Below, piece by piece: positions 14,884 through 20,749 of a DNA stretch of 64,000 nucleotides (positions are counted from its first letter, which is position 1; every line of letters starts with the position of its first letter). A program made the position numbers and the translations under genes. This DNA is from a phage. The notes under the pieces were generated by a model. That model did not search any database. It had not been told where the DNA came from and saw only the letters and a program-made list of their open reading frames with translations. The stretch lies in the sequence record PZ091942.1, one strand, 5' to 3'.

Positions 14884-15043
14884 AATTACCATTGGCGACA
14901 CCGTTCGCCTTGTTGGTGGAACTATTACAGGTGTTATTCGTCAGAGAACAATAATTGATGGTGTTCTCTGTTATCTTGTTCAGTGGAATGGTGAATCCTC
15001 TCCTTCCTTCGAACGTCGTACTGATTTGGTGTTAATCAAATGA
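14867..15043 (+). CDS. hypothetical small protein
   Basis: Internal ATG of track ORF 14714..15043 with AGGAAACAGGAG SD; overlaps end of upstream gene. Confidence 0.4.
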   Translation: MRSKVKITIGDTVRLVGGTITGVIRQRTIIDGVLCYLVQWNGESSPSFERRTDLVLIK

Positions 15044-15282
15044 AAGTGAATTTCGAAATCGTCCCAAAGACTAAACAAAAGACGTTAACTTTCGGTGATT
15101 TATCTAATGGGGACATCTTCAAGTTTAAAAATCCCGACGATGACACTTTTTTCTTGATGAAGGTGACATCTACATTTTCGTCGGCTATGAAGTTAAGCAG
15201 CACCTCTGACATACTCAAGGTTTCTGCGAACGCTGAAGTTGAAAAGTATGAATACAAAATTCTTATTGAGGGTAAGCAATGA
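15040..15282 (+). CDS. small protein, GDxF-motif paralog family
   Basis: ORF track; ATGA overlap; shares L-x-GDxF pattern with 15279, 16529, 19107, 20749. Confidence 0.55.
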   Translation: MKVNFEIVPKTKQKTLTFGDLSNGDIFKFKNPDDDTFFLMKVTSTFSSAMKLSSTSDILKVSANAEVEKYEYKILIEGKQ

Positions 15283-15509
15283 AAATTAATCTCCCATCTT
15301 TAGTTGTTACTAAAAAGCTCAGCGATCTACGTCCGGGTGATGTATTCCGTCTACCAACTAATTCTGAACACCTCTATCTAAAGACAGACACCTGCCTGAA
15401 TGATATGCATCGTGTGGTTGGTCTTCGTCAGGGAACACTATTCCAGTTACAGGAACATCATGAAGTTATCCCTGTATTTGATGTTCAAGTGACTAATATT
15501 GGTGGTTAA
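15279..15509 (+). CDS. small protein, GDxF-motif paralog family
   Basis: ORF track; ATGA overlap; LRPGDVFRLP motif. Confidence 0.55.
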   Translation: MKINLPSLVVTKKLSDLRPGDVFRLPTNSEHLYLKTDTCLNDMHRVVGLRQGTLFQLQEHHEVIPVFDVQVTNIGG

Positions 15510-15818
15510 ATGATAAATCTCAATATCCGTAGAGGTTTTTACCCTAAAGTCTCCTTCCGTGCTCAACTGGAGCAGCTTTCTGGTGTAACTTTCTTAGAGT
15601 TTACTTACAGCTGTGGTCGAGACAATCCCGGTTTCACTGTCACAATTGAATCTGGTTGGTTTAATATGACCATTATGCCAGAGGATGTTAACAATGCCCT
15701 TCGTGGTATTAAGTCCGGCGGCCTAAACCTTTTAGCTCCCAAGGTGGGTGATGAACTTCTTGCTGTGATTCGTAATGGTGTGGATAAAACAGCTAAGATG
15801 GTTGAAGCCCTTAAGTAA
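15510..15818 (+). CDS. hypothetical protein
   Basis: ORF track; start abuts upstream stop. Confidence 0.55.
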   Translation: MINLNIRRGFYPKVSFRAQLEQLSGVTFLEFTYSCGRDNPGFTVTIESGWFNMTIMPEDVNNALRGIKSGGLNLLAPKVGDELLAVIRNGVDKTAKMVEALK

Positions 15819-15824
15819 CATCGA

Positions 15825-15960
15825 CTTATAGCCCTTGTGCTTATCAGAGGGCTATGTGAGGATGTTCCTCAATTAACTATAATCTCAATGCCATATGGCT
15901 CACCGCTAGGGAGAGACTTGTCTCAAACATCCGGTGATAGACTAAAACCTGTTTAATTTT
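15825..15960 (+). repeat. conserved intergenic hairpin element, copy A
   Basis: TAGCCCT-12nt-AGGGCTA hairpin plus conserved blocks GCTAGGGAGAG and AACATCCG; second copy at 21003-21140. Confidence 0.6.
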
Positions 15961-16121
15961 CGAATGGCATTCCGATATGTAGGGGTATGTATCGGTTTGG
16001 GATAGAGAACAATCTAGGGGTAGAGAGTTCTCGACAGTTTGTACAAGCGGAAGCCTTAACGTGTAGGGCTTCCCTTTATATTAACTGGCAATCCTGCCTC
16101 CATTAACAAAGAGAGAACGTT

Positions 16122-16262
16122 ATGAAAAAGACAACCAAACGTATGAACCGTCCTGAACGTATGGATGCAGTAGCAAATGGTGCTCTGAAGATTGAGTCTG
16201 CTATGCTTCGTCTGACAACTAACATCCGTAAACGTCAAGGTGATTGGTTCTATGGCGGCTGA
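16122..16262 (+). CDS. hypothetical small protein (46 aa)
   Basis: ATG with weak SD; below ORF-track length cutoff. Confidence 0.4.
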   Translation: MKKTTKRMNRPERMDAVANGALKIESAMLRLTTNIRKRQGDWFYGG

Positions 16263-16449
16263 GCATGATGTTGGTATTCGTGAGATTATTCGTCTTGCGA
16301 TAATTGATCATCCTAACAGTCGCAATGGTCTGTTGTTACAGATCTCTAAATGTCTTAATTGCGATCGAGATGTAGCGAAAGAGCTGTTCTTTGCATTCCT
16401 TTATAATGCAGATGATCGCTTCTTGAATAACAAGTTGCGTAGTGCTTAA
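16252..16449 (+). CDS. hypothetical protein
   Basis: Internal ATG of track ORF 16240..16449 (GTG). Confidence 0.45.
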   Translation: MAAEHDVGIREIIRLAIIDHPNSRNGLLLQISKCLNCDRDVAKELFFAFLYNADDRFLNNKLRSA

Positions 16450-16454
16450 TAAGA

Positions 16455-16485
16455 GGCTGCCCTTCGGGGTGGCCTTTGTTGTTTT
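16455..16485 (+). terminator. rho-independent terminator (UUCG tetraloop)
   Basis: GGCTGCCC-TTCG-GGGTGGCC then TTTGTTGTTTT. Confidence 0.6.
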
Positions 16486-16528
16486 AATTAAGGGACAACT
16501 CTTACTTAAACTAACAAGAGAGGTTGAT

Positions 16529-18830: not shown

Positions 18831-19106
18831 TATCGTGAAGGATTCTTACGAGAGTCCTTTGAGATAGGACTTCAGATCTCCTATCAACTAACCGCTCAAT
18901 GTTGAGCATTTTAATCACATAAGCCCCTTAAGGGCTGGGTTTAATGCCGGTAAGCGTTTTACGCTATCCACTACAGCATCGGATTGTTAGGTCTTACATG
19001 CAATATTAATCAATAGGATATGGGAGGATTCGTCCCCTCCCCCTATTTATGAAAGCATTCTTCCGAGAGTTCTCTCATAAATTGGTCCATAACTAAAGGT
19101 GGTTAA

Positions 19107-19361
19107 ATGAAAGTTAACAAACCAGCAGGTAAGAGTGCAATACCTCTCAGTGCTTTGCGACTTGGGGATTGCTTCATGTACCCTAACAGTGAAGATGGTG
19201 ATTTGTACATCTTATTATCTACCGAGTTCTCCACTCGACTGTGCATCAAGGGCGCGGACGAGCACAGACTTGTAGCCTGTCTTAACACAGGCCGAGCGAC
19301 AGCGCCTCGTAAAGATGTTGCTGTTATTCCTATCAAAGCTGAAGCAACTATTAAGGAGTAA
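19107..19361 (+). CDS. small protein, GDxF-motif paralog family
   Basis: ORF track; AAAGGTGG SD; LRLGDCF motif. Confidence 0.55.
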   Translation: MKVNKPAGKSAIPLSALRLGDCFMYPNSEDGDLYILLSTEFSTRLCIKGADEHRLVACLNTGRATAPRKDVAVIPIKAEATIKE

Positions 19362-19364
19362 GCA

Positions 19365-19628
19365 ATGGCTCTGACCATTAACAAAACTCGTATTGCGGAT
19401 ATTCCTCTAATGGTGGCAGGTGTTTCTATCGGCTCTTTCTTTACTTTGAAAGAAGATAAAGAACAAACCATTTACATGAAAGTAAACAAAAGCTCTAATG
19501 GTTGTGAATACCACCGAGCTGTGTCGATGCAGAGTGGATATGTTCGTAATATGGCATCCAATATGCCAGTTGGTGTTGTGTTTGAATCGGCAACTCTGGA
19601 TTTAGTGGAGAAGATTAGTGAGACGTAA
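19365..19628 (+). CDS. hypothetical small protein
   Basis: ORF track; AAGGAG SD. Confidence 0.55.
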   Translation: MALTINKTRIADIPLMVAGVSIGSFFTLKEDKEQTIYMKVNKSSNGCEYHRAVSMQSGYVRNMASNMPVGVVFESATLDLVEKISET

Positions 19629-19875
19629 AGATCATCCGAAGTATGTATCACTACTGGATGCAGTCCTTCTCTGCACATATTGGCTCCTCATTGTCGTTGG
19701 GGCTGTGCTGATGGTATGTGGTGTCGTACAGTTCTTTATGTATCTGCAAAGCGTGTTAGATATCACATTAGCTAACACTATAATCCTTGCAACTCTCGGT
19801 ATTATTGCTTTCTGTGTGATTGTCTTCTTCGTTTGGTTATCTATGAACGACGACTCTACACACACCTTCTATTGA
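19618..19875 (+). CDS. hypothetical membrane protein
   Basis: ORF track (GTG start, GGAGAAG SD); two hydrophobic helices. Confidence 0.45.
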   Translation: MRRKDHPKYVSLLDAVLLCTYWLLIVVGAVLMVCGVVQFFMYLQSVLDITLANTIILATLGIIAFCVIVFFVWLSMNDDSTHTFY

Positions 19876-19888
19876 CAGGAGAAAATCA

Positions 19889-20005
19889 GTGAGAAAACGT
19901 GCCTACTCTGAAGAAGAAATGGTTAACTTGAAAGGCTTCGGTCAACGACAGCCTGACGGTTCAGTTATCTGGTACATTAACGGACAGAAAAAGGCAAGTA
20001 AATAA
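19889..20005 (+). CDS. hypothetical small protein (38 aa)
   Basis: GTG start 7 nt after CAGGAG SD; below track cutoff. Confidence 0.35.
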   Translation: MRKRAYSEEEMVNLKGFGQRQPDGSVIWYINGQKKASK

Positions 20006-20073
20006 GCCCTCTTCTCTCCTCCCTTTAGCTACTATGACGCCTCTCTTTTCGGCGCTGTTTTGGAGCTTCAAAA

Positions 20074-20487
20074 ATGTCTGGGAAATTCCCCAACGTAAGC
20101 AAGAAATTGGCTTACCTCACGTATAAAGAAAACATTGATCTTCTGGTCAAACTTTATCCGGCTTCATTCAACAAGCAATTCCCTCTTCCTTTGGAGCTTA
20201 ACATCCATAAGGAGATCGCCCGTAAGACCGGTTGGTCAGCGGAGAAAACAAGCATGGTGCTCAACATCTGGACTACTCGTATGGAGTATGTGATGATGGC
20301 CTGTAGCACTGGTAAACGCTTCAAGCTGCACTCTGTAGCTATGAAGATCCGTAGTCCTATTGACCCTGAGCCAATGGCTGGGTTCAGCAGCCGTCTGAAA
20401 TCTTTCCGTGATCGTGGTCGTGTAGTGAAGTTTAAGCACGACTTCTCTTATAAGTTTGGATACGAAGCGTTCCAATTCGTTGTTTAA
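20074..20487 (+). CDS. ProQ/FinO-domain-like RNA-binding protein (putative)
   Basis: ORF track; by-eye alignment to E. coli ProQ N-terminal domain (LYPASF~RFPHCF, PLPLELNIHKEI~PLKIGIFQDL, SAEKTSMVLNIWTTRMEYV~SKTQLRSALRLYTSSWRYL). Confidence 0.55.
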   Translation: MSGKFPNVSKKLAYLTYKENIDLLVKLYPASFNKQFPLPLELNIHKEIARKTGWSAEKTSMVLNIWTTRMEYVMMACSTGKRFKLHSVAMKIRSPIDPEPMAGFSSRLKSFRDRGRVVKFKHDFSYKFGYEAFQFVV

Positions 20488-20515
20488 TCTCTCTTTAATA
20501 TAAGGTAATAAAAAC

Positions 20516-20749
20516 ATGTCTAAAGTTAGCGCAATTGATGCCATCCGTCAGCCGTTCCAGTTTCAGTCCAAGTCAACTCAGACCCAAAGTGAACCGCGTC
20601 AGATTCGTCTGGGTGGTACAGAGAAGTCTGTGTTTGATATTGCGAAAAACAAAAGCGTAACCATCGTCGAAGGTGGTGAGCTGGTTAATGTTTCCCATCG
20701 TATCCGCACTGGCAAAACTGCCAAAGATCGTGCTAAGAAAGGTCTGTAA
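20516..20749 (+). CDS. hypothetical protein
   Basis: ORF track; AAGGT SD. Confidence 0.55.
   Translation: MSKVSAIDAIRQPFQFQSKSTQTQSEPRQIRLGGTEKSVFDIAKNKSVTIVEGGELVNVSHRIRTGKTAKDRAKKGL

Follow-up and report, generated by a model that had tools for sequence, protein, structure and literature searches.

Six small early-region genes of a Suseptimavirus genome belong to one diverged phage protein family with a predicted SH3-like barrel fold

The window analysed in this work is a stretch of 64,000 nucleotides of phage DNA (sequence record PZ091942.1), which corresponds to the genome of a Suseptimavirus, a phiEco32-like podovirus infecting E. coli. Its early region contains six small open reading frames (ORFs), designated A to F in their order along the window (Table 1), which, judged from their sequences, are homologous and represent old, diverged paralogs (17–30% identity) of one family. 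Together with numerous relatives found elsewhere they are predicted to form a phage-restricted family of stand-alone, cytoplasmic SH3-like small β-barrel proteins of 70–90 amino acids (aa). A first-pass annotation had grouped A, B, C, D and F by a shared motif and listed E as a possible member. The homology of the former five is borne out by profile scores well beyond those of shuffled sequences, and E turned out to be a firm member of the family.

Pairwise identity among the six proteins amounts to only 17–24%, and single-sequence phmmer comparisons yielded at most 13 bits; homology was therefore tested with profiles. In a leave-one-out analysis with hidden Markov models (HMMs), A scored 18.9, B 40.0, D 18.7, E 22.2 and F 20.7 bits, values which none of 2000 shuffled sequences reached, and C was borderline with 9.3 bits (equalled by one of 2000 shuffles). 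An HMM made from 128 distant metagenomic relatives and containing no window sequence assigned 44.1 bits to A, 60.8 to B, 15.1 to C, 55.8 to D, 38.2 to E and 53.1 to F, compared with a maximum of 11.9 bits (6.1 for C) when each protein was shuffled 1000 times. No other ORF of the window matched this remote-only HMM at an expectation value (E) below 1, and three different profiles revealed no extra copy in the window at that threshold. Comparison by hhalign of each ortholog group with the remote alignment gave probabilities of 98.6% for A, 99.5% for B, 96.3% for C, 99.3% for D, 97.6% for E and 99.3% for F, with an E of 1.6e-9 across 56 columns in the case of C. All six proteins thus show a significant match to a profile of independent members over the whole domain, by which we define membership in the family. 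C, which the first-pass annotation had treated as a plain member, is indeed homologous but the weakest and most divergent of the six.

The motif [LIVMF]xxG[DS]xF occurs eight times in the 410 ORFs of the window compared with 2.8 expected, and six of the eight are ORFs A–F; among small ORFs, five occurrences were observed and 0.32 expected. The initial grouping had been made dependent on the significance of the shared motif, and this enrichment, along with profile scores that exceed those of shuffles, establishes it. That the six ORFs merely share a common short motif by chance might be argued from the low pairwise identities, the weak phmmer scores and the borderline leave-one-out score of C. 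Such a resemblance without homology has next to no probability left, being already refuted by the remote-only HMM (15–61 bits versus at most 12 for shuffles), by hhalign (96–99.5%), by cross-hits between PHROGs, by a shared predicted fold and by the motif enrichment in small ORFs.

The two terminal blocks described in the first-pass annotation are less general than it stated. MK(V/I)N is found at the N-terminus of A, B and D only, with F starting with MQIAN, E with MALTIN, and C carrying a 13-residue extension instead; likewise, the C-terminal V-x-(I/V)-P-(V/I) block is confined to B, D and F (VGVV in E, VFVV in C and VEKY in A). Although present in three of the six window copies each, both blocks are real features of the wider family. 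Conserved throughout the latter are M1 (98%), I3 (80%) and the G (100%) and F (99%) of GDxF as well as a V (96%); further conserved blocks are [YFW]-[MIL]-K, A-V-x-L-x-x-G and V-x-P-V, which leads to the signature MKI...[FL]xx[LI]xxG[DE]xF...[YF][ML]K...AVxLxxG...VxPV. The well-conserved columns consist of glycines and hydrophobic residues plus one K and one D/E. We read the glycines and hydrophobic residues as turn and core positions of a barrel, and no conserved column of the family looks like part of a catalytic site or of a site for ligand binding. Length variation is greatest in the loop that joins the YMK and AVxL strands.

The wider family was revealed by an exhaustive HMMER search with a 22-sequence alignment against 1.84 billion cluster representatives (E <=1e-3), which returned 885 proteins, each standing for a metagenomic cluster at 50% identity. 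Little was gained by a repeat search with a 134-sequence alignment. A word-indexed homology search did not reach beyond orthologs within the phage genus, and tblastn gave no match to GenBank phages for a distant member and only four records for the family consensus. In the PHROG collection the family is split into phrog_7832, 6570, 7431, 8365, 12612, 16423, 9955, 10911 and 34455, with C in phrog_22099; all ten PHROGs matching window proteins are labelled 'unknown function'. Neither the six proteins nor 134 family members have a consistent match in Pfam, NCBIfam or PADLOC, scans of the same three resources produced no match to known anti-defence or takeover families, and the best hit of the profile against PDB sequences was not significant (E 0.52).

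An AlphaFold2 model of B (predicted local distance difference test score, pLDDT, 81.6; core >90) shows five β-strands. That of C has a pLDDT of 80.7 and is biased towards the family fold because its alignment included family members. In neither model did DSSP assign a helix of at least four residues. A domain of about 60–70 residues folding as a strongly bent, five-stranded antiparallel sheet or barrel is thus predicted, consistent with the class of SH3-like small β-barrels and with the single small fold that had been postulated at the outset. The isoelectric points (pI) of the window proteins are near-neutral (5.2–8.5); the family as a whole is acidic (median pI 5.1; 65% of members below 6). 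The near-neutral to acidic charge argues against general nucleic-acid binding.

A published precedent for small early proteins on this fold is the LSm-like GoF/MotB.1/Frd.2 family of phage T4 (PMC12152347). These three proteins resemble the window family in having an N-terminal five-stranded barrel with FeoA, IdeR and SloR as nearest PDB neighbours. By contrast, they comprise 119–141 aa including C-terminal domains, whereas the window proteins are single-domain, and T4 has three of them compared with 5–9 family members in phiEco32-like phages. A sequence relationship to GoF and MotB.1 (Frd.2 lying outside this comparison) was considered and rejected: the family HMM gave 0.1 and 1.2 bits, respectively, and hhalign 0.6–0.9%. 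Cellular SH3-like barrels, namely the C-terminal domain of ribosomal protein L2, the C-terminal SH3 domain of DtxR/IdeR, FeoA, the KOW domain of EF-P, the Tudor domains of CarD and UvrD, VapX, and HspQ, share 1–16% identity with the window family and match it neither by profile nor by sequence. None of their metal-binding histidines, aromatic cage or KOW motif is conserved in the window family. Furthermore, the latter lacks the N-terminal α-helix and the Sm1/Sm2 motifs that define LSm/Hfq proteins, and no Pfam LSM or Hfq match was found among 134 members.

All six ORFs are present at the starts given in Table 1, lie on the + strand and encode 76–87 aa, and each is preceded by a plausible ribosome-binding site (RBS) or has a start codon that overlaps the preceding stop codon. 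Among the six proteins, A has the least canonical C-terminal half, which lacks a V-x-P-V block; besides its own phrog_10911, A cross-hits phrog_9955, 6570 and 7832. In addition to its N-terminal extension, C possesses a 5-residue insertion in a β-turn or loop, and nevertheless aligns with the family over the whole domain. Its reading frame is open from a GTG at 16442. The ATG at 16529 is preferred as the start because of a terminator-like hairpin further upstream (Table 1) and the RBS GAGAGG preceding this ATG, and the 83-aa form is also the one annotated in phages ECBP2 and EK010. Structural matches of C in BFVD overlap those of B and include N4 gp21, the top match being a GAP52 protein with 48% identity. 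D matches phrog_7832 (E 1.8e-21) and F phrog_6570 (E 1.3e-22). In E, G-D-x-F is replaced by G-S-F-F; this protein matches phrog_12612 with an E of 5.6e-36, and F matches the same PHROG at 2.5e-7.

The region of 7 kb around the six ORFs is 95.3% identical to that of Escherichia phage ECBP2 over 96% of its length, and about 20 further genomes align over at least 80% of it; those whose taxonomy was checked are Gordonclarkvirinae, mostly of the genus Suseptimavirus. In phiEco32-like phages the early class comprises the genes that lie across the genome from the structural module; it is transcribed by the host σ70 RNA polymerase, runs opposite to the late genes and consists mostly of hypothetical genes with a presumed role in host takeover (PMC8948821, PMC9965538, PMC4281155). 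The layout of the window agrees with this scheme. A spacer of about 2 kb (9.5–11.4 kb) upstream of the early cluster contains a perfect and a near-perfect σ70 consensus match, in line with the clustered σ70 early promoters that have been described for the corresponding spacer in SU10 and phiEco32 (PMC4281155). Dozens of small co-directional ORFs come next on the + strand, and after them larger ORFs syntenic with the enzyme and replication genes of phiEco32, and large ORFs on the − strand start near 53 kb. ORFs A–F are located on the + strand between the σ70 matches and the large replication-type genes, in a region syntenic with the early region of SU7 and ECBP2. The early-region location claimed in the first-pass annotation is thus supported both by the literature-assigned early cluster and by the position downstream of the promoter matches, and the six genes are probably made early from promoters of the host RNA polymerase. 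Four terminator-like hairpins split them into gene blocks. The hairpin downstream of F has a counterpart in the annotation of SU7, where a terminator is placed in the matching interval between the F homolog and the next gene.

Variation of the family was assessed in nine relatives with about 91–95% nucleotide identity to this region. The ratio of nonsynonymous to synonymous substitution rates (dN/dS) of the paralogs is 0.05–0.21 at dS values of 0.25–0.81, which indicates purifying selection (A 0.18, C 0.06, D 0.05, E 0.13 and F 0.21) and is no higher than in neighbouring genes (0.05–0.38). Because of this purifying selection in the comparison with the nine relatives we consider the ORFs to be real genes. 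No copy shows gene-wide positive selection, all dN/dS values being 0.21 or lower. Gene content is more fluid. The relatives carry 5–8 copies per genome, A is found in only three of them, and TH34 and PAS59 have one further copy each. In ECBP2, TH34, Bas88, TH42 and MLP3 a seventh paralog of 74 aa directly follows B; the same slot in the window is occupied by an unrelated DUF7247 gene, which on sequence comparison amounts to the clean exchange of one cassette for another among close relatives. The F locus exists in several allele classes, whose proteins are between about 60% and 100% identical to that of the window, and B and E are 66–100% identical among relatives. D is 95–99% identical, and C 83–100% (97% or more in all relatives but one). 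The term 'diversifying' used in the first-pass annotation is therefore appropriate for gene content and alleles but not for the proteins within each ortholog group.

Beyond the close relatives, the family HMM detected nine members in phiEco32 (phi32_95, 96, 97, 98, 104, 109, 113, 114 and 115; E 5e-14 to 7e-7), which are partly arranged in tandem runs and occupy the same early-region position as the window copies. One member, gp21 (60 bits against the family HMM), is present in the first 45 kb of N4, the portion scanned, and gp21 is also among the structural matches in BFVD. Amplification of the family, as initially proposed, is thus evident from six copies here, 5–8 in the nine close relatives and nine in phiEco32, and the HMM search that had been suggested as a check extended the family to phiEco32, N4 and metagenomes. 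N4 gp21 and the nine phiEco32 ORFs belong to the same sequence family as the window copies and are all annotated as hypothetical proteins; since none of them has a known function, this membership says nothing on mechanism.

The distant members reside within long runs of small, unannotated, co-directional genes that are typical of phage accessory regions. One metagenomic contig carries two family copies, and another has genes for an 85-aa, an 86-aa and a two-domain 156-aa family protein in tandem. Six matched stretches of the domain are found in a protein of 679 aa (contig L017, 8001–10040). Genes for ribosomal proteins S21 and L12, MT-A70, a PARP-domain protein and a LAGLIDADG endonuclease lie on the same contig, and from this gene content we read it as that of a large phage. 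A protein of 834 aa (contig L019, 237–2741) contains several matched stretches, and its neighbours at 3441–4004 and 4015–4611 carry partial repeats too. Ten of the multi-domain relatives are devoid of any Pfam partner domain, and for this reason the fusions give no functional clue. One distant member (P0048) lies directly upstream of a gene with a Gad2 domain (PF26128; Gabija anti-defence) on a 122-kb JGI phage contig, where several further genes for 79–82 aa proteins are located nearby.

With regard to function, our proposal, to which we would give an even chance of being correct, is that the family members bind host proteins as stoichiometric, non-enzymatic modules, and that the targets differ between paralogs. 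Each copy would dock on a host (or host-defence) protein and block or redirect it without catalysis. The conserved barrel would provide the scaffold, variable loops and surface residues would set the target, and different paralogs would hit different targets early in infection. We infer protein binding, target diversity and an effect on the host because the barrel looks non-enzymatic, is multiplied and shuffled in an early accessory region, is kept by purifying selection and can be concatenated. Consistent with this proposal are the lack of a catalytic signature and of any enzyme-family match in Pfam, NCBIfam, PADLOC and PDB, the near-neutral to acidic charge, the modularity apparent from two-domain fusions, proteins with 5–6 matched stretches and tandem runs elsewhere, and the phage-only contexts of the distant members. 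Accessory behaviour is indicated by the varying copy number (5–8), the cassette replacement and the nine members of phiEco32 versus one in the first 45 kb of N4. The early cluster itself has been described as host-takeover genes whose function is unassigned (PMC8948821, PMC9965538).

Several points weigh against this proposal. The structures are predictions, with the model of C biased as described above, and early timing in this phage is taken from the literature on its relatives. The SH3-like barrel is a promiscuous fold class, which serves to bind protein, RNA, DNA or metal in different families. Literature searches on N4 gp21, the early paralogs of phiEco32 and the PHROG identifiers turned up no partner, phenotype or expression data. 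Finally, C and D are 95–100% identical in most relatives and gene-wide positive selection is lacking, so that an arms race need not be invoked. That C and D are so strongly conserved suggests conserved targets for them.

A role as RNA-binding proteins or RNA chaperones of the LSm/Hfq or Tudor/KOW type, acting on host or phage transcripts, is the main rival to the binding of host proteins, and we consider it unlikely. It draws on the finding that the T4 variant GoF(D25Y) stabilises an mRNA and on a gene for a ProQ/FinO-like RNA-chaperone homolog located within the D–F block; wild-type GoF and MotB.1, however, had no RNA effect in the T4 work, and the family is, as shown above, unrelated to them in sequence. 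Moreover, the model of B has no N-terminal helix of at least four residues, Sm motifs are lacking, conserved basic or exposed aromatic positions are not evident in the family, and its acidic to neutral character (median pI 5.1) argues weakly in the same direction. The partners might also be phage-encoded, the small proteins being antitoxin-like neutralisers, or chaperones or regulators of neighbouring early products, for which the SH3-like antitoxin VapX could serve as a parallel. Translational coupling to unrelated small neighbour genes would fit this idea, which we nevertheless regard as very improbable: the neighbours differ between the A/B, C, D/E, F, N4, phiEco32 and metagenomic loci, leaving no conserved partner gene, and sequence similarity to VapX is lacking.

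It is somewhat less improbable, though still unlikely, that the paralogs constitute a dedicated anti-defence arsenal in which each neutralises a different immune system, which would explain why Gordonclarkvirinae were found to be highly resistant to the defence systems tested in BASEL phenotyping (PMC11990801). Copy number and cassettes vary among close relatives, F has several allele classes, and one distant member adjoins the Gad2-domain gene. This association is a single case, however, and C and D are near-invariant in relatives, with a relative of C at 48% identity in GAP52. All dN/dS values are far below 1, and the resistance of the group may, in our own reading, have other causes such as its cluster of nucleotide-metabolism and ligase genes. 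No functional or defence-inhibition data for the family were found in the literature on anti-defence in Gordonclarkvirinae. Gene-content variability, the Gad2 neighbour and the reported defence resistance of the group (PMC11990801) point to an anti-defence role for those copies that vary, namely A, B, E, F and the additional cassettes. The most far-reaching version of our proposal, a modular and swappable toolkit of single-domain inhibitors, each tuned to a different immune or housekeeping protein of the host, with copy number (5–9) and cassette exchange as a main cause of defence resistance in Gordonclarkvirinae, is unlikely. Phages would then diversify this scaffold much as eukaryotes employ SH3 domains as binders. 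If true, the 885 metagenomic clusters would amount to a large reservoir of anti-defence and host-takeover specificities on one scaffold.

The fold class is common, and each of the genes already has a database entry as a hypothetical protein. The apparent novelty is that the window ORFs, N4 gp21 and the nine phiEco32 ORFs are joined as one large family that lacks a Pfam entry; neither a published statement uniting them nor a description of the copy-number and cassette dynamics was found in the searchable literature. At least nine separate PHROGs of 'unknown function' are thereby merged into one family with a predicted fold and a clear signature, which accounts for about one in ten small early genes of these phages. 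Given that annotation is lacking for most early genes of virulent phages, such grouping is a first step to their study, and the existence of K-12-infecting relatives (BASEL Bas86–88) makes the family experimentally tractable. Copies with distinct host targets would represent a compact natural library of protein binders; copies that do nothing measurable would be informative on gene turnover in phage early regions.

Table 1. Coordinates of the six paralogs and of other features in the window
Feature	Position	Strand	Description
σ70 consensus match	9806..9833	+	TTGACA-16-TATAAT, perfect 12/12; pattern scan
Second σ70 match	10543..10571	+	11/12; pattern scan
Small early ORF	12946-13155	+	69 aa
Small early ORF	14867-15043	+	58 aa
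A	15040..15282	+	80 aa; start overlaps stop of preceding gene (ATGA)
B	15279..15509	+	76 aa; translationally coupled to A; most central family member
DUF7247 gene	15510-15818	+	PF23905, E 6e-12; slot after B
Terminator-like hairpin	16049-16073		after A-B block; pattern scan
Terminator-like hairpin	16452-16477		before C; pattern scan
C	16529..16780	+	83 aa; most divergent copy
Tandem paralog 1	17036-17197	+	tandem set of 53–69 aa
Tandem paralog 2	17207-17371	+	tandem set of 53–69 aa
Tandem paralog 3	17381-17590	+	tandem set of 53–69 aa
tRNA-Arg(TCT)	17927-18002	+	inside early cluster, between C and D
Phage lipoprotein family gene	18021-18347	+	PF24052, E 3.5e-36; between C and D
Hairpin	19022-19041		before D; pattern scan
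D	19107..19361	+	84 aa; RBS AAGGTGG; first gene after hairpin 19022-19041
E	19365..19628	+	87 aa; 4 nt 3' of D
ProQ/FinO-like gene	20074-20487	+	137 aa; PF04352, E 4e-6, 27.2 bits vs cut-off 27
F	20749..21000	+	83 aa; last gene before hairpin 21197-21214
Terminator-like hairpin with T run	21197..21214	+	closes D-E-...-F block; pattern scan

Other features of the early region are a tRNA gene and a gene of a phage lipoprotein family, both located between paralogs C and D. The ProQ/FinO-like protein is 97–100% identical among relatives (dN/dS 0.05), and as a phage protein with a predicted FinO domain it may manipulate host or phage RNAs. The ORF at 28614–28847 was considered as a link to the RNA polymerase-binding early regulator gp79 and rejected; the match is weak and not significant (E 0.9), and the gp79 paper describes α-helical elements and mentions neither a barrel nor an SH3 fold. 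Two small early ORFs, of 58 and 69 aa, display barrel-like patterns by eye (e.g. KITIGDTVRL...GVIRQ); they match neither the family HMM nor Pfam and may be unrelated small barrels. Between C and the tRNA gene lies a second set of tandem paralogs, three proteins of 53–69 aa sharing MIKWxKRxFHxHEW...CKxCG (an H-x-W block plus CxxC), of which the other two are 42% and 27% identical to the first. They have no significant Pfam match, and the pattern resembles that of a small zinc-ribbon.

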